Shown one piece after another: positions 1-64,000 of a stretch of DNA of 64,000 bases. Position numbers and translations under genes: made by a program. Source of the DNA: Dictyostelium discoideum. Taxonomy: Eukaryota. The notes under the pieces are model-generated. The model was given only the letters and a program-made list of their open reading frames with translations, did not search any database and was not told the DNA's origin. Position 1 is the stretch's first letter; each line of letters begins with the position of its first letter. Where the stretch lies: the NCBI GenBank assembly GCA_000004695.1, contig CM000153.2:4992001-5056000 (forward strand), in the 5' to 3' direction.

Positions 1-544
1 TTTGTTGTTATTGTTATTGTATTACTTTATTGATTAATATTATAAAGTGAAGTGGTAATCCGTAATTATATATTAGTAATAGTTTTGTAATAAGTCATGG
101 TGTGATGATAGGGATCTTTGGGTGTGTGAGGTGGTGGTGAAATCCTTTGTTAATGGTACTGGTGATGAAATTGGGTGAAAAAAGATCAATTGGATGGTTG
201 ATTATTGAATTGATTTAGAGTTGGTTGATGATTTGGTTGGGTTTGACATAGTAAACTATATATTGGTTTGATATTGGTTGGATTCAAATTGTTTAAAAAA
301 AAAAAAAAAAAAATAATAAAAATAAAAAAAAAGTTTTGTTGGCCTAAAGTTGGAGATTTAAAAATGAAAAGAAAAATTTTATTATCATATGATAATGAAT
401 TAATTATTTTATAATAATTTTGTGTAACTATTTGGTAAAAAATGTTTATTTATTTATTTTTTTATTTTTTTATTATTTTTTTTTTTCCTTCTTATTTATT
501 TATTTTATTTTTTTTTTTTTATAAAAAAAAAGATTATTTAACTT

Positions 545-2267
<1,723 letters not shown>

Positions 2268-2530
2268 TTTTACTTTTGTGTAAAAAAAATTTTATTTAAA
2301 AAAAAATAAATAAAATAAAAAAAATAAAAAGGTAAATAATAATAATTTTATGATTAGTGTAAAATTAAAAAATGGTATATTTAGATTTAAATTAATTTTA
2401 AATAAATACCAAAAAAAAAATTAAATTTACTAATGTATAAATATATAATATGATTTGTTTTAGATGTACAAATTTATGAATAAAAAAAAAAATAAAAAAA
2501 TAAATCATTGTACAGTGTAACACATAAAAA

Positions 2531-2563
<33 letters not shown>

Positions 2564-3252
2564 CTATTTCCTAACACCTAATACACCCATTTTTACAAAT
2601 TAACACAAAAAAAATGTATATAATATATTTATATATTCATATTTAAAAAAATTGCTTCCAATAAAAAATTACCAAACCAATAAAAGCTCATTCTCTAAAA
2701 AAACACCACCAGATTTCAAAAAAAAAAAAAAAAAAAAAAAAAAAAACAAAACAGTTTGGAATTATTTGAGGGTTAATTATTTTTATTATAGTTGTTCATT
2801 GTTTTATTTTCATTTATGTCTAGATTTTCAATATTATTATTTTTATTATTAAAAAAAAAAAATAAAAAAAAATAAAAAAAATGAGTTATAACTTGGTTTT
2901 TTTTTTTTTCAAAATACAAAAATCAATCATCATAACAATTATGGGGTTAGATTAAAAAAAATTATTTAATGTGGGTGTGAATTTTTATAATAATATAACA
3001 AACCTACACAAAAACTTGGTGGTGAAAGTGGTAAAAATAAAATAATCATAATTGTGTTTTTATATTCTTTTGATTTAATTTATTTTTATTTTTTTTTATT
3101 TTTTTTTTTAATGTTGAGTAGGTTACATCACTTTTTCAAACATCATTCACACCCAAATATATATATATATATATATAGTATAAAGGAAACAAATTAATTC
3201 AGAATGCCACAAAAAAAAAAAAATAAAAAAAAAAAAAAATAAAAAAAAAAAA

Positions 3253-3283
<31 letters not shown>

Positions 3284-4052
3284 AGGTAATTAGAAAAGAA
3301 TTGTCCAATGTTAATTCTCTGTTATCCCAATCACCGACAATTTCGAACATGATTTCTATGTTGTACATTTATTAGATCAACAACAACAACAACAACTACT
3401 ACACAACTGAATTAGAATGTCAATTAGATCCAAATTAATGTGTTTGTAATTTAATTACAACCAGTAAACAGGTTCTGGTTTAATATTCCCGAATAATATT
3501 CTAACATTATCAAGTCAATCATATTCAAATAGTACCGTTGCATTAATTTAAAACCAATGGTTACTGTTATTCTCCAACCATTAAAAACAATTAATAAAAG
3601 AAAAAAAATTAAATAAATAAAACAAAATGAATAAAAAATTTAAATTATAATTAATTTATGAATAAATTTATTTAAAGAGTTTTGATTGTGATATTGGATA
3701 TTGTAGTGGGTATTACTGTTTAAAAATTTTAAAAAAAAAAAAAAATAAAAATAATTACTTAAAATATCAATTTACTATATCACTAAAAAATTAATAGTAA
3801 TTTTATTTTATTAATTACCTTTTTAATTTTTATTTTATTTTTAAAATAAATATATACACATATGTATTTTATTTTATTATAGGTAATTATTATAGGTAAT
3901 TATTATTATTATAATTTTGTTTTTTTATTTTTATTTATTTATTTATTTATTTATTTGTATAAAATTTTTATAAAATATAAATTTTCTTTTTTTTTTTATT
4001 ATTTATTACTTATTATTATTTATTATTTATTATTTCTTTATTTTTTTTTTTA

Positions 4053-4460
<408 letters not shown>

Positions 4461-4819
4461 TTACTATTTTTATTACTATTATTACTATTATAATTATAAA
4501 TAAATATCAATATTATAGTATTTATGAATATTGAATTATTCAAATAATTTGTATTATTTGCAAAGGTGATGTTTTGAAACAGAAAAAAAAAAAAAAAAAT
4601 TAAAAACAAAAATAAAAATAAAAAAAAAAATAAAATAATTTTTTTATTTTTTTTTTTTTATTTTTTTTTTCGACTTAGGAGCTATTCTGTCGTGGTTTTA
4701 AAAAAAACCCTATTTCATTAACTGACAAAACGGTTTTTTATTTGAAATCACTGATTGATATGAGTAACAAAATATCAGAAAAAAAAAAAATCGTCGTTTG
4801 ACACAATTTTTCAAAAATA

Positions 4820-4856
<37 letters not shown>

Positions 4857-4971
4857 TTTAATCAAAACCCGAAATTTATTTTGGTTTTTTTTTTTTTTTT
4901 TTTTTTTTTTTATTAATTTATTATTGTGTGCGTTTTAAAATAAGACAACCAAAAACCAAAAAAGAAAAAAG

Positions 4972-5762
4972 ATGGCAACAAACAAATTTGTATTTTTATT
5001 TTTATTTTTTATAATTGTTATTGTTACTGTGACAAGTTCAAATAATATAATAAAAGTTATTGATAGCAGTGATAGTAATAGTGATAGTGATAGCGATAGT
5101 AATAGTGGTAGTAGTAATAGTAAATATAATTTTATATCATCTACAATTACAAGTTTAGAATTATCAAAAGTTTGTCCAAATGAAGATTCAATAGATTATT
5201 ATCGTATTGGTGAATGCATTGATGGATATATGTACAATTGTGACATTGAAAACCAAAATGTATTGGTCAGTAGTTTTGGCGATTTCGAATGTTCAATTCT
5301 AAATACAACTACCACTTTTCCAATTGGTTGTTCATCAAATTCAAATTTAACCTCCTATTATAATTGTGTTGAAGAGATAACTCCAACACCATTATCTTAT
5401 ATTATCACTACTTTTGGTGCTCGTCAATGTGATAAAACTCAAATAATTCACCAAAGATTTGTAAAATTAGGTAAATTTTAAAAATTAAATATAGATTTTC
5501 AAAAAAAAAAAAAAAAAGAAAAAAAAAAAAAAAAAGTGTGTATCTAACTTTTTATTATTATTTTTGTTTTATTATTACTATAGATAATTGTGGATCATCT
5601 ATGTATCCAATAATATATGGATCATGTAATTCAACTTATTATTCTTACACCTATTATAATACAACAACTTGTGAAACACCTATTTATGAAATGGCAGATG
5701 TTTTAAATGTTTGTGTAGAATCTGACATATTCAATCAATCATATTTATCTCAATGTATATAA
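4972..5762 (+). CDS. Small secreted Cys-rich protein; 2 exons (4972..5470, 5584..5762)
   Basis: Signal peptide MATNKFVFLFLFFIIVIVTVTSS, then an SDSNSDSDSDSNS acidic stretch and many Cys. The donor TTAG|GTAAAT and acceptor ctatag|AT keep the frame (…VKL-D-NCGSSMYP…). Confidence 0.5.
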
Positions 5763-7048
5763 TAATTTTAAATTTAAATAAAGAATCTAATAGGTTTTTT
5801 TTTTTAAAGAGATAATTCATGGGTTTTAGTATTAGTTTTTTATTTTTTAAAAATTTAATTTTTTTTTTTTGAAAATTAAATTTAATAAAAATAAAAATAA
5901 AAATTAAAAAAAAAAAAAATTAATCCATTTTAATCAATTTTTTTTTTGGGAAAAAAAAAAAGAAAAAAAAAAAAAAATAAAATAATTAGGACTGATTTGA
6001 ATTAAAAAAAGTAAAAAGTATAATTTTTTTTTTTTTTGGAAATCAAGATCAAAAAATGTTACTTTTTTTGGGTTTACCAAATTTGGTTGATCTTTTATTA
6101 AAAAAAAAAAAAAAAAAAATTTCAATTGGAATTTTTTAGTATAAAAAGACAAAAAATTATTCATTATTTTTAAAAAACAAATATAATTTCAAAAATAAAA
6201 AAAATTAAAATAGAAATTTTACATTTTAGGAAAAAAGAAAATGTAAAAAAAAAAAAAAAATTATAATTCTGAATAGACAATATTAAAAGGTAATTTTAAT
6301 TTTAATTTTCTTATTTTCAAATATTTTATACAAATAAATAACTTACCATTCTCTTTCCAATTATTAGGCAGAATGTAAAATTTCTTTTTGTCCTTAAACT
6401 GTCCCAAAAGGTGTAATTAAATGTCAATACTATAGTTTTTATTTTTTAGAAAAAAAAGATAGTCTTATTAAGTGGTAGTTTATTTAGTATTGGTCGGTAC
6501 TAATTCAATGTCTGAGAATCAAAGGATTTTATTTTTTTTATAAAATAAATCTTTCAATTCTCAGGCTTTGCTAATTGGTAGATTGGTATTAAACAGCTTT
6601 CACTTAATGATAATATTTTTAAATTAAAAATAAACTATTTGATTGTCGACAATAAACTATAATTTAACATGGTAGTTTGGACTTAATGCAAAGGTAAACT
6701 ATAACAATACTTTAATTCCAATACTATTTAATAAATATTGCAATTTTCTAATTATATATTATTTTATAAATTTTTAGGTTGATCCAAGAATTCAATACCT
6801 GTCAACAATACTATTAAATAAAATAAATTAAAATAAATTAAAATAAAATAAATTAAAATAAATTAAAACAACAAACGAAACAAAACGAAACAAAACGAAA
6901 CGAAACAAAACAAAACAAAACAAAATAAAATAAAATAAAATAAAACAATCATTTTAATATTTTAAATTAATTTATTTAAATTCTTAAAAGTTCATTTTTT
7001 AATTCAATCCATTTCCATTATAATTTTAAAAAGTTCTTCATATTAAAG

Positions 7049-7108
7049 AGATTAATAAGATGAAGAGATTAATCTTTAATAAAAGGAAGAGATTAATCTT
7101 CTCTTAAA
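7049..7108. promoter_or_regulatory. Three spaced copies of a 10-bp palindrome AGATTAATCT (first copy imperfect), 85–145 bp upstream of tRNA-Phe
   Basis: The motif 'gagattaatc' is read three times at 7053, 7073 and 7095. The core equals its own reverse complement. Confidence 0.3.
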
Positions 7109-7192
7109 ATGATGTTGGTTTATAAAATAGAAAAAGTAAGGTTTTTATTGAATGGGGACGATTTTTTCTTATAAAAAATTGAATTTCATCAA

Positions 7193-7266
7193 GCCTTAGT
7201 AGCTCAGTTGGTACGAGCGTGAGACTGAAGATCTTAAGGTCGCTGGTTCGATCCCGGCCTGAGGCA
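7193..7266 (+). tRNA. tRNA-Phe (anticodon GAA)
   Basis: Cloverleaf read by hand: acceptor GCCTTAG/CTGAGGC, D-arm GCTC-AGTTGGTAC-GAGC, anticodon stem TGAGA/TCTTA with loop CTGAAGA (GAA), T-arm GCTGG-TTCGATC-CCGGC, discriminator A. Confidence 0.85.
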
Positions 7267-7298
7267 ATTTTTTTTAATAAAAAACCAATTGAGATCAT

Positions 7299-7311
7299 AG
7301 GTTCGATTCTA
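7299..7311 (+). promoter_or_regulatory. External B box (exB), GGTTCGATTCTAG, about 33 bp downstream of tRNA-Phe
   Basis: It matches the B-box consensus GGTTCGAnTCC. Dictyostelium tRNA genes commonly carry an extra B box 20–40 bp downstream. Confidence 0.6.
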
Positions 7312-7347
7312 GTTTAATAAATCCAAAAATTGAAAAAGGTTCTTTTA

Positions 7348-8625
7348 AAGTGACCAAAGCAATCAAAACTTCAAGTATCCACAAATCTCCAGGTTTAGAC
7401 GGTATCAATGCACTATTCTACAAGTACCACATCAACTCAATAGCAAGAATATTGACTATAGCTTTCAACGACCTCCTCACAAATAAGAAAGAAATCCCCA
7501 CAAAATTCAAAGAAGGAGTAATAACAACAATATTCAAAAAAGGAGATGAACTAAACATTTCAAATAGAAGACCAATCACCCTTCTCAATACAGATTACAA
7601 AATTTTAAGCAAAATTCTCAACAGTAGATTATTAGATATCACCAGTAAAATTATCAACAAATTTCAAAACGGCTTTGTTCCAAACAGGTTCATCCAAGAC
7701 AATATTCAGATCATGAAGGAAGTAATAGAAATAAGTAACAAAAGAAAGAACAATACACTCATTACCTTTTACGATTTTAACAAAGCATTCGATTCAATCA
7801 GCCACAAGAGTATCACAAGAACATTAGAGCATATTGGTATCCCCCCAAAATTCACAGCGATCCTACTAAACCTACTCAAAGATACTAAAAACAAAATAAA
7901 GATCAACGACTTTTTAGTCAATGGAATAACAATCAGAAGAGGAACAAAACAAGGAGACCCAATATCACCAACAATCTTAGCTCTAGTTTTAGAACCACTT
8001 CTAATAGATATCATCAATGATAATCAATCAAGAGANNNNNNNNNNNNNNNNNNNNNNNNNNNNNNNNNNNNNNNNNNNNNNNNNNNNNNNNNNNNNNNNN
8101 NNNNNNNNNNNNNNNNNNNNNNNNNNNNNNNNNNNTAAAAAATTTAATACAATTGAATAATAAAAATATAACCGTTTAACAAACACCGCCGAAAAGACAC
8201 AAGGACATTCATTCCTTGAAGGTCTGATCACAGGTAAAAAAAAAAAAAAAAATAATCATAATATATCTAAAATTTAAAAAAAAAAAAAAATCCACAGATG
8301 GTCAATGGATACCTTAGACATATCAAAATACAACAGAACTGAGAGAATCTTCCCCAATCTCATAGGAATAATAGCACACCAATTATGGAAGATAATCTGT
8401 CACAAATTGTTCAACACTGATGAAAGCAAACCAGAGCCAAAATTCGAACAAAAGGTCATAGAAACAGAATTACTAAATCTCATCGAAACTGAAAAATTCA
8501 TCACACTAAAGAAAATCAAACACGACGAAGCAATACTAAAACACCAATCAAGATCTTCACAAATACAAATTCAACAAAGCCTGGCAAACCCCAGCAGCTC
8601 CGAACCCTCTTCCAATTTAAGTAGT

Positions 8626-8671
<46 letters not shown>

Positions 8672-8787
8672 GTTTAAAAAATTTAATACAATTGAATAAT
8701 AAAAATAAAATCGTTTAACAAACACCGCCGAAAAGACACAAGGACATTCCTTGAAGGTCTGATCACAGGTAAAAAAAAAAAAAAAAA
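7348..8787 (+). mobile_element. Tandem pair of 5'-truncated TRE3-type non-LTR retrotransposon copies. Copy 1 is about 7348..8259 and includes an assembly gap. Copy 2 is about 8262..8787. The pair is flanked by a 16-bp target-site duplication.
   Basis: Copy 1 carries a reverse-transcriptase ORF (SPGLDGINALFYK…, FYDFNKAFDSISH, KQGDPISP, motifs of non-LTR RTs). Both copies end with nearly the same 3' module, …tttaatacaattgaataataaaaat..cgtttaacaaacaccgccgaaaagacacaaggacattc(att)ccttgaaggtctgatcacagg followed by poly(A). Copy 2 (ORF 8305..8667) is the C-terminal part of ORF2. The 16-mer gaaaaaggttctttta occurs at 7332..7347 and at 8788..8803, directly flanking the insertion. The position, about 70 bp downstream of a tRNA gene, fits TRE3 target preference. 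Confidence 0.75.
8036..8135. other. Assembly gap (100 N) inside TRE3 copy 1
   Basis: A run of N. Confidence 1.
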
Positions 8788-9178
8788 GAAAAAGGTTCTT
8801 TTATTAATGGCTATAAACACAGAATTGGAGATGACTAGCCTCAAAATAACACCACAAACCTATATATATAGGTTAGAATTTCTAACCAGTCAATATCAAA
8901 AAAAGAAATAATTTTTAACCACTTTTTGTGCAAAAAAAAAAATAAAAAATAAAAAATAAAAAATACAGTCTGTGGTGTTTATTTTTGTAACCAAAGCTTA
9001 AAAATTATGGTGTTTTAAAAAAAAAAAAAGAAAAAGAATGTTCTATTTTTTAATATTTGTCAAGGGTTCTCAGCTTAGTGGTTTAATTTAAATAGTCTTT
9101 AGTGTTCTTTATTTTACAATTAAGATTTAAGGAGGAATTATTAATTTACAATATTTTTCTTTTTAAAAATTTTAAATC

Positions 9179-9412
9179 TTATGGGTTTCTTAGTGAATTA
9201 TCAGATTGGAAAAATTTTGTTATTACTTGATAGCCTGAAATATTAATAGCACCATAATTTGTAAGACCACTTGAAATTGGTTTACCAATTGTAGCATTAT
9301 AGCTTTTTTTATTTAGAGTTAAATTTGAAACTATATCTTTAATTATAATAATAATTAGTAAAAGAGTAAAAATTAATTTTAAAAACCATATAAACTTACT
9401 TAAAATTGTCAT
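9179..9412 (-). CDS. Possible small secreted/membrane protein, 77 aa (hypothetical)
   Basis: True ATG at 9412 and a hydrophobic N-terminus (FIWFLKLIFTLLLIIIII). I recognise no domain, and the region is AT-rich, so this ORF may be chance. Confidence 0.2.
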   Translation of the reverse strand: MTILSKFIWFLKLIFTLLLIIIIIKDIVSNLTLNKKSYNATIGKPISSGLTNYGAINISGYQVITKFFQSDNSLRNP

Positions 9413-9922
9413 TTTTCTTCTTTGGAAACAAATAATAAAAATAATAAAATAAAAAAAATAAAAAATATTTATATCCCTTTAATAAATTTTTATTTTTTTT
9501 AATTATATCTTTTAATATTTATTTTTTTGATAATTTTTTTTTTTAAAAAATTATCTTTTTTTTTGTTACAGTTAATTAGTTAAATAAAATTTTCAATGAT
9601 AAAAAAGGTTTAAAAACATAGATGATCCAATTATGGAAGGAGTCAAAAAAAAAAAAATAATAACATTAATGAAAAACGGTTTAAAAAAAGATTATATCTA
9701 TTAAAAATAACAGTTAACTCTATCATTTATTAGAATGGGTAGCAACATATATTTCATCAGAATAATTTTAAAATTTTTAAATCGAGATTGTGTGTTTTTA
9801 TATTTTTTTTTTTAATATATTTTTTTTTTTTTAATTATTTAAATAAATATTTTTTTATTTGTTTGGGGGTTATATTATTATTTTTTTTATTTTTTTTATT
9901 TATTAATTTAATTATTATTTAT

Positions 9923-12900
9923 TAATTTAAAACTTTTAATTTATTTTTTATATTATTTAAAAGTTTTTTATTATTATTCTTTTTAACAAAATGGTAGGCC
10001 AAAGATATTGAAATCACAGCTACAAATGCTACAGAACCAATAATGATACCAGCTAACTGGCCAGAAGAAAGACCAGATTTTGAATAAGTACAAATATTAT
10101 TTGAATTTGAGTTTTTACTATGATCAATAAGTAGAGAAAAATCTTTTTTTTTTTTTTTTTTTTAAAAATATATAAATAAAAAATAAATTAGTTATTATTT
10201 AGAATAATTAAAAATAATTTTAAAATTTTTAATTATTATTTACCCGGATCAATAATAACATATTCTTTATATTGAGGTATTGAAATTGCTATAAATAATT
10301 GATCTGAATGTGGTGTTGTGTCTATTGTTTTTAATGAATTAAATTCTGATTTTTCTAATATTGTATTTGAAATTGATTTTGGTAAACCATCAATTAATGC
10401 TCTTTTTATGAATCTACCATATAATGAATGATCACCTACTTTAATTTTTAAGTAATTTGAATTATCAATAGAATTTGTTTCACCAAATTCATTTCCAGAA
10501 CAAATATCATTAGTTTTTGAAGATAAAAGAGATGCTGACATAATTAATTCAAGTTGATTTAATTGATTTTTAAAATTATAATTTGAAAATGAAATTGTAT
10601 ATTTTATAGTTGATGGATTCATAATGAGTGATTGATTTGCAAATGAAATATTTGTTTCTTTTGTAAACCATTGTAAAGTTGTATTTATATAGGTTGTTGT
10701 TGTTGAAATTCCATCAATAGTAGTTGGTGGAACAATGATTGATGTTTGGTATAGGTTAGTTTCATTATTAATTTTTGTAAGGTTCCACTTTTCAAAATAA
10801 TATTCATTTACAACCTTTGAATTAAAATCAATTTCTCTAATTCCAATCAATGAAACAATTGATTTAAATGAATAATCTTGAATATTTGATGTTGATGTTG
10901 AATTTGGTGTTATTATAATTTCAGTGGTTGGGTCATTTGGATTTGGTTTTGGTTGTGGAATTATGATTACTTGTGAACTACAATCATTACCAATCCAAGG
11001 TGAATAGCAAACACATCCAACATTTGTTAAACAATAACCTTGATTTTTACCACCACAAATTGGTTCACCAAAACATAATTGTGGTGGATTTGTTGGTAAT
11101 GGAGTTGTTGGTGTGGGTGTTGGAGGTAAATCATATGATATATTGAAAATTTTTGGTACAACTGTAAATTTGTTTGAAATGGAAATTAGATTTCCACTCA
11201 TATCAAATTCCATAATATAAATTATAAATGGTTTTGTAGTTGCATTTACCATTACCGAAAAAGCACTAGAGTATACAGTAATTGGGGGTTGTTCATATTT
11301 ATTTAATGTTTCAGTGTAATTGATATAAACAACAAATGAAGAATACATATTTCCATTAGGATCAATAAAATCTTTATAAAAATTACTACCCAATACCCAT
11401 AATAAACCACCTTTTTCATTAATTGTACTTGTATCTGTAATAGTCATAGTATCAGGCATAAAATCAATAATTAAACCATTATATCTATTTGTCCAACCAT
11501 TTGATCCCAGTGTGTGAGAAGAGTAACCACTATAGTATCCTAAATTATTTATAAATCCATAAACACTAAAAATAAATTCACTTCTAAAACCAAAACCATA
11601 TGGTACATTAATACTACATGTATATCTACAAGTATTTATAGAAGATTGAGAAAATAATTTTGAATAACATTTAATAGAATCAAAAAATAATGTAGATATG
11701 TAAATAATTGGAGTTTGATCAATTCTAATACCAGAATCCAAATCTGTTACAGTGAAATTAAAATTGAAAACACCATTTGGAAATTCATACATTTGGAAAT
11801 CTGTTAAAAATGGAACTGTATTACCACCGGTATTTGAACAAAAGTTTGGGACAATTCTATTATTGAAATCCATAAAATTAATGAACGGATTTTGAATTGG
11901 TTCTACAACATTACCATTTTCTGAAAATATAGCTCTATTCATTTGAGTATCATATAATTCAACATATGTGATTGAATAATTTTGTGGAACACATGATAAA
12001 GGGATTGGTATCCATAATTGATAAAAACCAGATTTATCATCACCACTTGATAATTTAACATTAATTTCATTTCGAAGTAACTGTCTCTTATAATTTTGTC
12101 CTGTTGGTTCTAAATAGAAAATATAAGTTGAACTATCTAATTCACCTGAAATTTTAATAGTACCATTTTTAAAACCATTGATTGGATCATAAATATTAAT
12201 TTTCAAACCAACTTCAAGACTAGTTGAAATTACACTTAAATTATTTATTACAGGACCATATCCATCATAATTTTTACTAATACAAGTTAATTGAACTGAT
12301 TTTGATAGGTATGAACTAAAAAGTGTTGCTAAATTTCCATCAACGATATCTTTTATATATGACCATCCACCAAATACTAATTTCCAAGGAATAACTCCAC
12401 TTTGAGTATTTGATGGTATTTCAAATTCAACTTGAAATAATTTAATTGTTGAATTCCATTTTGAATAATAAACTTTACCAATACCATCATTCTCTATTTG
12501 ATTTAATGAAACCCTATCTAATAATTGAAAACCAATAACTCTTTCCTTTTCAATTGGTTTTGTAAAATTAAAATAAATTATATTTGAAACTGTTTTATTA
12601 GTAATATCAACAACTTGATGTAAATAACTTAAATCACTTATTGAAAATATATCAACATCTAAAATTAATAAATAATAATTATAATTTGTTAATATAAATT
12701 TAAAATAAAATGTAAAAAATTCTTTTTTTTTTTTTTTTTTTTTTTTTTTCAAAAAAATTTACCTTGTAATTTTGGTGGGTATGGTATTCTTTTTAGTGAT
12801 TTTGGACTTGTAATTTCACCAATTTTAAAATCTTGAGTATATCCATAAATATCTTCATATGTTATTATCTCTGGATAATGTAAAAATGTATCAATTACTA

Positions 12901-13571
12901 TTTCATAGGTATAATAATCTGTTGAAATAAAGGTATCCATTGAAGTTGATTGTGCAACCAATCTTTCATGACCATATTCTTTATTATTAATAATAAAACA
13001 TTTTAGCATTAAAGTTTTGTCTATTTGGATTTGAAATAAATATTTAAATTCAAATAAATGAATAACATCTACTGAATATAATGTTGGTTGTTTTATAACA
13101 GCTATTGTTATGAAAATATAAAAATAATATTAATATTAATATTTTTCATTTAAATTTTAAAATAAGAATATAAAAATTAATAAATAACCTTACAAATTGG
13201 AGATGGAATGTTAAAAAAATAATTAAATGGTTGAATTGAAAAACGACGAGTCTTTGAAGTTTCATTTGGTAAAAGGAATGATATTGAAAGTGAAAATCCT
13301 TTTAAATTTGAACCATCTTCAAAACCAAATGGAAAAGTTTCTTTTAATAACCCCTTGTCATATATTTCATATGTATACACTGAAAGATCATACTTTGAAA
13401 CATTGATAAATTGTGTTAGAATTAAATTTCCTTTCGGAGTCAACAAAATATGAGACTCAACGAAAATATAGTTAAAAACCAAAAATTTTTCTTTTTTTTT
13501 TTTTTTAAAAAAAAATAATATGTTTGTTAAAAAAATAAATAAATAAATAAATAAATTAATAAATAAATTAA

Positions 13572-13614
<43 letters not shown>

Positions 13615-13948
13615 AATTAATAATACCAATTATATATATATCGTTTGAACCAATAGAACTCCTCAAAGTTTCATTATAATAAACATAAACATTAGCATTC
13701 GAATTTTTTACAAATAAATATCCAACTGGATTTATATACGTTGTTGTACCATTAATTGAAAAGATTGGTTTTGGTTCATTAATTGAAAAATCATTGTTTA
13801 CAAAAATAATAATTGGATCAATATCTGTAGTTTGAGTTGAAACTGTTTGCAATGGTCCAAACCCATTACCCATTACTTGATATGAAGTAGTTCCAGGTGG
13901 ATATGTTTCTAATTGATATGAAAATTCGTCACTATTTCCTCTTGCTAT

Positions 13949-13994
<46 letters not shown>

Positions 13995-14356
13995 AATTAA
14001 TTAATATTGGAAAATTAAATTAGATATTTAAAAAAAAAAAAAAAAAAAAAAAATAAGAAATACATTACATTCATAAAGATATGGAATTATAATATTATAC
14101 CAAGATTCACCACCATCTGACACATTAAAAAAATTAAATTCCATATTACCACCAGTATAAAATGGTTCAATAATAATTTTAAATGAATTATATGAAATTG
14201 GGGAAAATGCCCTCTCTGCATGTGGGTCTTGTAATCCATTTAATGGTCCATTTAATCCATCAATTATTAATATTGCACAACCATCATCTGTAAATCTATT
14301 TGATCTTAAATTTGGATATACCCTAAATTTCATATTATTAAAATCAATAGCTACAT

Positions 14357-14404
<48 letters not shown>

Positions 14405-14849
14405 AATTAATATTTATTATTTTAAATAAAAAAAAAAAAAAGTATTAAAAAAAATAAAATAAAATAAAATAAAATAAAATAAAATAAAATAATTTACCTA
14501 AACAATTAAAATTAATAGTTAAAATGTCCTCACCATTATCGACCTCACCAGTGAAATTTCCAATTGGAAAATTCCAAAGTTTAACAGTGAAAATAATAAA
14601 AGAATCATTTCTAATATTTGGTTCTCCTGTGGTATTATAAAAACTTGTAAATTTTAAACCACTTGCAATTGGTGATAAAAATTCAAACTTAAAATCACAA
14701 ACGGGGTCATTAGATCCTAATTGATATTTATTATAAGTTGAAAACTTTTGATCAGATACATCTATTATTTTTGTTTTAACTGAAATTAAATTGTTTAAAA
14801 AAAAAAATAATAATAACAGTGTTTGAATGATTTTTATTTTGCGATCCAT
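9923..14849 (-). CDS. Large type-I membrane glycoprotein with one EGF-like domain (gene A); at least 8 exons. Modelled exons include 14849..14498, 14350..14069, 13944..13627, 13490..~13190 and a large block 12752..10236. One or two small exons near 13020–13120 are uncertain. A final TM/tail exon is at ~10142..9923.
   Basis: True ATG at 14849 followed by a signal peptide (MDRKIKIIQTLLLLFFFLNNLISV). Donors are GTAAAT or GTATT and the frame is kept across each modelled junction. The EGF-like motif reads CFGEPICGGKNQGYCLTNVGCVCYSPWIGNDCSS, followed by a PTPTPTTPLP linker. The last exon (donor CCGG|GTAAAT at 10236) codes a TM segment LAGIIIGSVAFVAVISISLAYHFVKK and a short tail, with the stop near 9923. 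It is a paralogue of the gene at 21005..25830. Confidence 0.6.
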
Positions 14850-15467
14850 TTAGAAAAATAATGAGAAATGACCATTTAAAAAAAAAAAAAAAAACAATTG
14901 CTTTGAGGGAAAAAAAAAAAAAAGAAAAAAAAAATCAAAAAAAAAAGTCAAAAAAAAAAAATCTAAAAAATAATTTAATGAAGATATTTTCCTGATAAAA
15001 AAAAAAAAAAAATTCGAAGAACAAATAAAAACCATATCTAAAAAAATATTTTTTTTTTTTTTTTTTTTTTCTCTTTAATGATAATTCTTATTTTAATTTT
15101 TATTTTTTTTTATTAACCATCATTCTTTTTCAATTTTTTTTGACCAGATATTAAAAAAAAAAATTGGAAAAAATATTTATCTTTTTTTTTTTATTTTAAA
15201 AGGTATGGTGAAAACTCTTTTTTAATCTTTTTTTAATAAAAAAAAAAAAAAAACTTAAATTTACATTATTTGCAAATCAAAAAAAAAATTAAAATAGAAA
15301 TTAATTTTTTCTTTTTTATTTTCATTTTATTTAATAACCAATTCTTTGAATAATTTTTTTATTTTTTTTTTTTTTTTTATTTTCCACTTTTTTTTTTTTT
15401 TTTTTTTTTTTTTTGATTTTTATTTTTTTTAAAAAAAAATAATTATATAAAAATTTCCATAGAAATT

Positions 15468-54099: not shown

Positions 54100-54756
54100 G
54101 CCCAAAAATAATGGTGCATTAATGTTCCACACCCTAATTTCCAGAATCGAACCAGCAATCTAAAATCAACATCCAAATTAATATTATATGAATGCTGTAA
54201 AGCGTGAATCAAAACTAACTTTTCAGTTTTTATAATTTTCGAGTTTTCGTTATTTTCGGCCGAAGAGTTTCGAACGAAAACTCTAAAATATATAAAAACT
54301 AAATAAATTAATTATTATTTTAATTATTATTGTTTAATTGTTAATCATTATTATTCTTATTATTATTACTATTATTAATATTATGATTATTTTTTTTTTT
54401 TACCTAAAGGCGGTGTATTGTTATATTTTATTTCATTTTTAAGTTTTTAAATTTTTATATTGTTATATGTTGATATTTTTGGTTATATTATGATTTCTTC
54501 TACTTGGTTTTTTTTTTTTTTTTATATTATGATTATTTTTTTTTTTTTTTTTTTTTTTTTTTGATATAAATAAACTATTGTAGTATACAATTAGTATGTT
54601 ATTTTTATTTATTTATTTTAGGTTTTTTAGTTTTTGTGAATTTAAAATTGTATGTTATTTTAGATTTGATAATTAATAATTAATTGGTAGTGTAATTGTT
54701 GGAATTGGTTCATTTGTGTTTATGAATTAGTATGTTATTTTTATTTATTTATTTTA

Positions 54757-54793
<37 letters not shown>

Positions 54794-55176
54794 TGGATTA
54801 ACAAGATTGATATATGTCCATCTGTGTTAATACGAGTTTTATTTAATATTTATTTAAAGGCTTATCATTTAAGCTGAAGGGTTATTTTAATCATATGAAT
54901 TGATCAAAAGATATAATATTTGGGAGAGATGATTCTGGAATACAATAGTAATTAGCTGTTGTTTTTCTTAGCTTGATCGTTGAAGTGAGAAGGATCTTAG
55001 GATCTTTGAAGTTATTATGGTCTTTTGCTGATAAGTTTTTCAGATCTTTTGCTTTTTTGATAATTTAGGTTTTTTAGTTTGTGAATTTAAAATGGTATGT
55101 TATTTTAGATATATTATGATTATTAAAACTTATTAATATTAAACAATGTAATTCATTACACAAAAACATTAGTTTG
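54100..55176. repeat. Non-coding repeat-rich spacer downstream of tRNA-Val
   Basis: An approximately 80-bp unit (aattagtatgttatttttatttatttattttaggttttttagtttttgtgaatttaaaattgtatgttattttaga) recurs at about 54590, 54722 and 55060. The motif 'atattatgattatttttttt' occurs at least 4 times. An 11-bp inverted repeat gagttttcgtt/aacgaaaactc lies at 54238–54284. A B-box-like GGTTCGATTCTGG sits on the minus strand at about 54132–54144. Confidence 0.5.
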
Positions 55177-55250
55177 TATTCAGAGCGGGAATCGAACCCA
55201 CGACCTAATCCGTGTTAAGGATTCGTGATAACCGACTACACCATCCGAAC
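55177..55250 (-). tRNA. tRNA-Val (anticodon AAC)
   Basis: Reverse complement reads GTTCGGA-TG-GTGT-AGTCGGTTA-TCAC-G-AATCC-TTAACAC-GGATT-AGGTC-GTGGG-TTCGATT-CCCGC-TCTGAAT-A. The anticodon loop is TTAACAC, giving AAC. The acceptor stem has two G·U pairs. Confidence 0.8.

Positions 55251-58965: not shown

Positions 58966-64000
<5,035 letters not shown>

Follow-up and report, generated by a model that had tools for sequence, protein, structure and literature searches.

Two TRE3-type retrotransposon copies and a foreign sequence tag within one target-site duplication downstream of a Dictyostelium discoideum tRNA-Phe gene

Introduction

In a 64,000-nucleotide stretch of Dictyostelium discoideum DNA (strain AX4, chromosome 4; assembly GCA_000004695.1, contig CM000153.2, positions 4,992,001 to 5,056,000; hereafter the window), which is AT-rich with about 20% G+C, two 5′-truncated copies of one tRNA-targeted retrotransposon of the TRE3 type lie head to tail behind a tRNA-Phe gene, inside a single pair of identical 16-mers. 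How did two copies of one element come to share one target-site duplication? TRE3 elements integrate 40-150 bp downstream of a tRNA gene, in the gene's own orientation, and are targeted via an external B box (PMC5911963), and their copies are reported to be 'always' found near tRNA genes (PMC5006619, PMC5911963). The same tRNA gene can be hit sequentially by TRE elements, which then form tandems (PMC5006619, supplementary Table S2 note).

We propose, with a probability of about 0.55, that one on-target integration produced the block: reverse transcription would have started on the RNA of the downstream copy (copy 2) and switched to the A-rich 3′ end of the RNA of the upstream copy (copy 1), the latter RNA carrying a short tag. 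This proposal is based on the structure of the duplication, on the differences between the two copies and on the probable origin of a short spacer that separates them.

Results and discussion

The insertion site downstream of tRNA-Phe

The tRNA-Phe locus was retrieved from three other assemblies via the neighbouring glyoxalase gene (window 4053-4442, - strand). L004 (GCA_054883475.1, D. discoideum strain ACTFIT) is a gapless counterpart of the tRNA-Phe locus, and L010 is the ACTFIT counterpart covering the tRNA-Val side of the window. Of the other loci, L002 and L005 come from strain ACTFIW, L006 and L008 from strain ACTFIR, and L001, L003 and L011 from Dictyostelium citrinum. The insertion site has the following features:

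7193-7266, + strand: tRNA-Phe(GAA) gene (ARAGORN; Rfam RF00005, 62.5 bits)
7245-7255, + strand: internal B box GGTTCGATCCC of tRNA-Phe (motif scan)
7268-7275, + strand: T8 run, presumed RNA polymerase III (Pol III) terminator of tRNA-Phe, read from the sequence
7300-7310, + strand: external B box GGTTCGATTCT, a match to the B-box motif GGTTCGANNC
7332-7347: 5′ copy of the 16-bp target-site duplication GAAAAAGGTTCTTTTA (exact match; present in L004)
8788-8803: 3′ copy of the same duplication (exact match; present in L004)

Searched on both strands, the 64 kb contain just four matches to the motif GGTTCGANNC, of which two are the internal B boxes of the two tRNA genes. The match at 7300-7310, which lies 33 nt past the end of tRNA-Phe and 21 nt ahead of the duplication, keeps its position in L002 and L006, which are diverged haplotypes (GGTTCGAATCC), and in L003 of D. 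citrinum (GGTTCGATTCC), and this conservation, together with the scarcity of the motif in the window, makes it a credible external B box. The 16-mer is found exactly twice in the window (0.5 matches are expected with up to 2 mismatches), and both copies abut the element ends exactly. Measured from the 3′ end of tRNA-Phe, it is 65 nt to the start of the duplication and 81 nt to the first base of the element, which lies in the orientation of the tRNA gene; the insertion site is 37 bp beyond the external B box. The element integrated by target-primed reverse transcription 81 bp downstream of tRNA-Phe, with duplication of 16 bp of target.

A first-pass annotation of this DNA had placed a TRE3-type insertion 'about 70 bp' downstream of tRNA-Phe, with an external B box between and an identical 16-mer bracketing the block. 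ARAGORN, Rfam, the motif scan, the reverse-transcriptase (RT) domain and the relatives of the element all bear out the insertion and its setting, the distance is an acceptable approximation, and the 16-mer has its two exact copies at the element ends and nowhere else in the window. The duplicate was also found in L004; its presence in an independent assembly had been set beforehand as a check.

Two copies from two templates

Within the pair of 16-mers the window contains:

7348-8252, + strand: TRE3 copy 1, 5′-truncated (RVT_1 at 7536-8018; L004 gives the full 2314 bp)
8036-8135: assembly gap of 100 N, corresponding to 1512 bp in L004
8253-8275, + strand: spacer TAATCATAATATATCTAAAATTT, 23 nt
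8276-8290, + strand: A15 run adjoining copy 2 on its 5′ side, with up to four A's that could be the element's own
8291-8787, + strand: TRE3 copy 2, 5′-truncated (alignment to the single copies at L001, L009, L007 and L011)

Identity between L004 and the window is 99.6-99.9%, with L004 14431-6417 as the counterpart of window 1-8031 and L004 4904-1 as that of window 8136-13044, and L004 shows the matching layout of 16-bp duplication, two copies and spacer, without the gap. In L004 the block between the 16-mers (7101-4258) measures 2844 bp, made up of 2314 bp of copy 1, the 23-nt spacer, A15 and 492 bp of copy 2.

Copy 1 comprises the remainder of open reading frame 2 (ORF2), with the RT and C-terminal regions, an internal A34, the 3′ untranslated region (UTR) and an A17 tail at 8236-8252; what the gap hides is the remaining ORF2 sequence together with the internal A-run and the first part of the 3′ UTR. 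Window 7350-8033 translates to an RVT_1 fragment (E = 1e-25, domain at 7536-8018), and the gapless copy 1 of L004 contains the complete RT domain (RVT_1, E = 5e-37, profile positions 3-204 of 205). The copy begins 62 codons upstream of the Pfam RT domain and not in the middle of it, as had first been supposed. Its ORF2 has a frameshift near RRTEWR in the L004 translation, where a C-x2-C-x9-H-x4-C pattern (CKICGHLFRDPYSHLFTLC), a candidate for the C-terminal zinc-finger region of ORF2, is visible but has zero Pfam profile matches. Copy 1 shares 98.0% identity with L009 and 96.8% with L001 of D. citrinum, and the best protein match of the RT fragment is a D. citrinum protein at 97% identity.

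Copy 2 holds the 3′ end of ORF2, an internal A34 (8629-8662), the 3′ UTR (8663-8770) and an A17 tail (8771-8787). Its canonical stop TAA is at 8618-8620, and the ORF seems to enter the A-run because a private 2-bp deletion shifts the frame. Since 8291-8787 aligns unbroken, at 97%, to the single element copies at L001, L009, L007 and L011, the A-run at 8629-8662, which the first-pass annotation overlooked, is a normal internal feature of the element and no junction. The canonical 3′ end consists of the ORF2 stop TAA, GTAGTAGT, A24-A40, about 108 nt of unique 3′ UTR ending in CACAGGT, and an oligo(A) tail, which is A13-A21 among the copies of the family.

The 3′ module with its A17 is found at 8136-8252 and at 8675-8787 with 96% identity, so the description of two 5′-truncated, head-to-tail copies with a common 3′ module and poly(A) holds, although the arrangement is a tandem and not 'nested'. 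Over 510 aligned positions the copies are 97.8% identical and differ by 5 bases and 2 indels. Each has private changes, the two are not each other's nearest relatives, and these differences indicate two different templates. The insert is dead on arrival, lacking the 5′ UTR, ORF1 and the endonuclease and having frameshifts in both copies. A B-box-like motif in the 3′ end of the element, GGTCTGATCAC, was considered as a recruiter of a second insertion and rejected, as it has mismatches (judged by eye) at the conserved T55, C56 and C61.

The junction between the copies reads CACAGGT-A17-TAATCATAATATATCTAAAATTT-A15-TCCACAGATGG, and the canonical element sequence at the 5′ end of copy 2 is CATCAAAA|TCCACAG. 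The second copy is therefore not set exactly at the poly(A) of the first, as one of the first-pass alternatives had it: A17, the 23-nt spacer and A15 intervene, the latter two being 38 bp that had been passed over.

One could ask whether this junction is real, since an N gap lies inside the block in the AX4 assembly and the bases next to the gap are erroneous, which might point to a mis-join or to a local tandem duplication of the 3′ end of copy 1. However, the copy junction is contained in one contiguous window stretch (8136-8803), the gapless L004 repeats it base for base, and the copies are distinguished by private substitutions and indels and separated by a foreign 23-nt tag, so that an assembly artefact and a local duplication are both effectively refuted. 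In general, AX4 and ACTFIT disagree here over the length of homopolymers, over a single low-complexity patch and over a few bases where the AX4 contig ends. The gap-adjacent bases at 7979 and 8024-8035 deviate from ACTFIT and from other element copies (e.g. PTILALV vs PTIFALV) and are probably low-quality read ends in the AX4 assembly.

A spacer that matches a tRNA-Val target site

The spacer leads to the other tRNA gene of the window, 47 kb from the tRNA-Phe insertion:

55176-55250, - strand: tRNA-Val(AAC) gene
55102-55122, - strand: 21-mer shared with the first 21 nt of the spacer, lying 54-74 nt downstream of tRNA-Val(AAC)

The first 21 nt of the spacer, TAATCATAATATATCTAAAAT, match 55122-55102 (- strand) at 21 of 21 positions, where about 2.5e-5 exact 21-mer matches would be expected from base composition. 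The 21-mer consists of the tRNA-Val target 12-mer TAATCATAATAT and the next 9 nt, ATCTAAAAT. The same 12-mer recurs at 54524-54535 and 54378-54389, so that its three occurrences stand before the first, between, and after the last of the element units found there, and the site has therefore been used at least twice. Apart from the ACTFIT counterparts (L004, L010) of both window sites, the 21-mer is absent elsewhere in the window and in the ten loci compared. In single copies of the family the tail runs directly into the duplication, without extra sequence; the A17 of copy 1 followed by TAATCATAATAT is the junction expected of a TRE3 integrated at the tRNA-Val nick. A degenerate 3′ UTR start was rejected as the source of the spacer, since it accounts for just about 19 of 27 bases with gaps, as against 21 of 21 exact at the tRNA-Val site.

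The full junction of copy 1, spacer and copy 2 was found in no fetched locus except L004, the ACTFIT copy of the tRNA-Phe locus. An exact-protein look-up with the copy 2 ORF returned zero matches, as did the element 3′ UTR in a scan of Joint Genome Institute (JGI) metagenome contigs.

The tRNA-Val site has a history of its own. Window 54378-55122 (- strand), downstream of the gene, is a cluster of 5′-truncated TRE fragments that end in poly(A). Two such units separate the first copy of the 12-mer from the second: the first consists of a module, U, and 300 bp matching the 3′ end of a different RT element (L007 2755-3053) at 100% identity, and the second carries U/V-like modules. An A16 run stands ahead of the last unit, X3 (54402-54507), which is the 3′ UTR of a sister TRE3 subfamily. 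The fourth B-box motif of the window, GGTTCGATTC, is at 54144-54153 (- strand), about 1 kb downstream of tRNA-Val and about 290 bp once the TRE cluster is removed; it adjoins a G+C-rich near-palindrome, GAGTTTTCGTTCGAAACTCTTCGGCCGAAAATAACGAAAACTCG, at about 54240-54282, and could be either an external B box that has been displaced or what is left of another element.

Origin of the tandem

The proposed series of events is as follows. Reverse transcription would start on the A17 tail of the TRE3 RNA that became copy 2 and would halt after 492 nt, just beyond an AAAA stretch. The RT would then switch to another TRE3 RNA, slightly different from the first, entering it at its A-rich 3′ end and copying 2.3 kb of it to give copy 1. 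This second RNA would be a read-through transcript with about 21 nt of donor 3′ flank after its own A17, and the flank would be a TRE target site downstream of a tRNA-Val(AAC) gene, either the site in the window or a paralogous one. Both copies would in this way have been joined before or during a single integration.

Several features of the block favour a single integration. Only one duplication pair encloses both copies, with no 16-mer between them. At the tRNA-Val site, reuse regenerated the 12-bp duplication between the units, which did not happen in the tRNA-Phe block. The signature of a classical tandem, such as that at L007 2755-3285 with a separate duplication, separate flanks and a 64-bp genomic spacer, is likewise lacking. 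The match of 21 nt of the spacer to a tRNA-Val target favours the single integration of an RNA-level chimera over two insertions. An A-run precedes both the 5′ end of copy 2 (A15) and the fragment X3 at tRNA-Val (A16), and the canonical sequence ahead of the 5′ end of copy 2 is AAAA, which would supply microhomology.

The classical explanation for a TRE tandem would be that tRNA-Phe was targeted twice, by two independent TRE3 integrations with a duplication each, and sequential hits on one tRNA gene are indeed reported (PMC5006619, supplementary Table S2 note). The flanks of copy 1 are, however, the 16-mer on the 5′ side and TAATCATAATAT on the 3′ side, and those of copy 2 an A-run and the 16-mer, respectively. 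As neither copy has a matching duplication of its own, this explanation is refuted.

A different kind of second event deserves more consideration. Copy 1, with the tag and A15, could have integrated first and produced the 16-bp duplication, and copy 2 could have been inserted later into the A-tail, or at the boundary of tail and duplication; it would then have left an all-A duplication, which is not visible. Poly(A) tails are good targets for APE-type endonucleases, as established for L1 and Alu. Microhomology-mediated 5′ joining would agree with the junction A15|TCCACAG, where the A microhomology is up to 4 nt long, and the derivation of the copies from different templates would be accounted for. 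On the other hand, the reused TRE site in the window did regenerate a duplication between its units and the tRNA-Phe block did not, and the second event would have taken place some 2.4 kb away from tRNA-Phe, beyond the 40-150 bp range of TRE3 (PMC5006619, PMC5911963). An off-target insertion 2.4 kb away is unlikely because TRE3 copies are always found near tRNA genes (PMC5006619). We therefore regard the later insertion as unlikely, yet as the main rival; a second insertion and one integration of a tandem, the two alternatives named by the first-pass annotation, are indeed the live options.

It may also be that the tandem was already present in the donor, and that one long read-through transcript of an existing classical tandem at another tRNA gene, with two copies in this order and a 38-bp genomic spacer, was integrated. 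Classical tandems with a genomic spacer of tens of bp are known (L007 2755-3285; PMC5006619, supplementary Table S2 note), and a single unusual step would suffice to explain both the one duplication and the divergence of the copies. Yet the spacer matches the present tRNA-Val locus over just 21 nt, the last 9 matching bases belong to the repeated module U and continue differently at tRNA-Val, so that the donor would need a further arrangement, and the junction occurs in no fetched locus other than L004. A donor tandem thus appears quite improbable.

Several points weigh against the template switch that we favour. Sequence alone does not separate it from a later insertion into the A-tail of copy 1, nor from a donor tandem. 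The single 16-mer pair, the A-run junction and the different templates are all the layout of a template-switch chimera, and this layout also fits insertion into a poly(A) tail; microhomology at the 5′ end is expected under both. No experimental demonstration of template switching by the TRE3 RT was found in the literature consulted. As for the donor, no TRE3 of the family of copy 1 is present at the tRNA-Val site in AX4 or ACTFIT. Moreover, the spacer continues with TT and A15 where the tRNA-Val locus continues with AACATACC, which leaves the 3′ end of the presumed read-through RNA unexplained. Lastly, the 12-mer of the tag is also similar to the beginning of a sister-subfamily 3′ UTR, where AATCATAATATA lies within X3 at 54484-54495, so that part of the tag could have another origin than the tRNA-Val site.

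Comparison with known systems

In 3′ transduction by LINE-1, transcription runs past the polyadenylation site of the element, and donor flank is carried to a new site. The tRNA-Phe block is alike in having unique non-element sequence between the element's own A-tail and a second A-run, and in the match of this sequence to a plausible donor flank, namely a TRE3 target site behind a tRNA gene. It differs in that merely 21-23 nt are carried, that no donor element is present at the matching site, and that there is no AATAAA signal close upstream of the second A-run.

Template-switch chimeras are represented by the L1 U6-L1 chimeras and by the end-to-end template jumping of R2 (Bibillo and Eickbush 2004, as cited in PMC3159450). 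Here too, two RNA-derived units lie head to tail inside one duplication, joined where the upstream unit has its 3′ end or A-run, with a short microhomology. In contrast, both partners belong to one element family, and for a TRE3 RT the activity is a proposal.

Among the elements of Dictyostelium, the TRE3 family (TRE3-A, formerly Tdd-3, and TRE3-B, -C and -D) is alike in the APE-RT ORF2, the oligo(A) tail, the frequent 5′ truncation, the use of an external B box and the tandems at one tRNA gene (PMC5911963, PMC5006619). The basic insertion described here is no different, but a shared duplication with a foreign tag was not found described in the TRE3 literature consulted. The experimentally studied TRE5-A (DRE) is alike in ORF2 domain order, in target-primed reverse transcription with 5′ truncation and in its dependence on landmarks of the Pol III transcription complex. 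TRE5 elements, however, lie about 50 bp upstream of tRNA genes in opposite orientation and have A/B/C modules, whereas the present element lies downstream in the same orientation.

The insertion is thus of an ordinary, known kind and leaves the understanding of TRE3 elements unchanged; the shared duplication with its flank-derived tag is a small but real curiosity. We suggest only tentatively, and with somewhat more doubt than confidence, that the tag would be the first donor-tracing evidence for 3′ transduction and RNA-to-RNA template switching by a TRE3 element of Dictyostelium. If this were true, a now-missing TRE3 at the tRNA-Val site would have fathered copy 1 and been lost later, or would still be segregating in natural populations. 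TRE3 integration would in that case yield single-duplication chimeras regularly as a by-product, such as the units that separate the first two copies of TAATCATAATAT at tRNA-Val. The combination of shared duplication and tag offers a means to trace donor-offspring relations and to test the TRE3 RT for template switching, neither of which was found described in the Dictyostelium literature consulted.

Family identity and relatives

The assignment to the tRNA-targeted non-long terminal repeat (non-LTR) retrotransposons of TRE3 type was made on, and is supported by, the behaviour and domain content of the element. The relative at L009, which is 98% identical, has an APE-type endonuclease domain (Exo_endo_phos, PF03372, E = 2.5e-9) upstream of RT in the same ORF2; the window copies, being truncated, are without it. 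The sites of the family are:

L001 (D. citrinum): tRNA-Gln, 66 bp to the element, 9 bp past an external B box; 14-bp duplication
L009: tRNA-Asp, about 63 bp to the element; imperfect duplication of about 17 bp
L011 (D. citrinum): tRNA-Arg, 145 bp to the element; 13-bp duplication
L007: tRNA-Pro, 293 bp to the element, inside an expanded 13-mer array; duplication within the array
L012: a relative downstream of tRNA-Arg
Window: tRNA-Phe, 81 bp to the element; 16-bp duplication

All of these copies lie in the orientation of their tRNA gene. The downstream, same-orientation placement and the duplications of 13-17 bp match the published behaviour of TRE3 (PMC5911963, PMC5006619).

The D. citrinum copies (L001 8308-10513 and L011 5314-5841) show that family copies are 95.6-97.6% identical between D. 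discoideum and D. citrinum, while the orthologous flanking DNA at the tRNA-Phe locus has about 72-91% identity, mostly 77-82%. As the identity of the elements exceeds that of the flanks, the family would have been active around or after the split of the species, or would have moved between them.

The array at L007 9480-10580 (- strand) is a long run of the 13-mer TTCCTTTTTTCAA that lies downstream of paired tRNA-Phe and tRNA-Pro genes. Two separate TRE3 3′ ends are found within it, one a stub of 17 nt with A16 and the other a copy of 740 bp with A21, and array sequence flanks each of them.

TRE-free alleles and haplotypes

ACTFIW (L002/L005), ACTFIR (L006/L008) and L003 of D. citrinum all have the tRNA-Phe gene with the external B box and lack the TRE3; because such TRE-free alleles occur, the insertion behind tRNA-Phe is not fixed. 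With them the locus offers a clean and fully resolved case in which tRNA gene, external B box, duplication and element can all be seen, next to a TRE-free allele from other strains. The comparison of empty sites suggested by the first-pass annotation succeeded to this extent. It did not recover the exact unduplicated target, for the flanks of the TRE-free haplotypes are merely 78-91% identical to AX4 and lack about 85 bp that include the 3′ half of the 16-mer.

This segment of about 85 bp (window 8796-8880), which adjoins and partly overlaps the 3′ duplication and is missing in the ACTFIW and ACTFIR haplotypes, has no match among the fetched loci except L004. An 18-bp palindrome, AACCTATATATATAGGTT, lies within it at 8857-8874.

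Over window 1-20000, the ACTFIW and ACTFIR loci L002, L005 and L006, although labelled D. discoideum, are merely 78-93% identical to AX4, and the 838-codon ORF of AX4 at 10236-12752 has 92% identity to its ACTFIW counterpart. This region contains tgr-like genes (DUF7035/ComC_SSD, TIG/Ig_TgrO1), and the comparison took in L002, L005, L006 and L003. The divergence suggests a deep haplotype split at a polymorphic recognition-gene cluster.

Annotation of the locus

The locus exposes two annotation problems, namely a 100-N gap that hides 1.5 kb, and a host gene fused to a retrotransposon ORF in the gene models DDB_G0286863 and ACTFIT_005212. As regards the first, another 100-N gap at window 61210-61309 corresponds to only about 73 bp in ACTFIT (L010). 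Gaps of the same nominal length thus hide about 73 bp and 1512 bp, and 100 N must be a placeholder of arbitrary true size.

As regards the second, DDB_G0286863 (marked partial) and ACTFIT_005212 (939 aa) join a host protein to the TRE3 ORF2 remnant. The host part is a small, secreted cysteine-rich protein, and the predicted intron spans tRNA-Phe. Matches to the AX4 protein DDB_G0286863 lie at window 4972-5469 and 7296-7916 (100% identity) and at 5574-5753 (95%), and the orthologs of the host gene in TRE-free strains have 222-236 aa. The fusion is almost certainly an annotation artefact. Such chimeric models draw host and TRE proteins into one 90% cluster, and the protein matches of the element carry just 'hypothetical protein' names.

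Two minor repeats are found near the tRNA gene. A (CAAAA)n/(TAAAA)n microsatellite stands immediately upstream of tRNA-Phe, and a 24-bp direct repeat, TTAATAAGATGAAGAGATTAATCT, occurs twice, at window 7052-7099 and in the 6900-6950 region.

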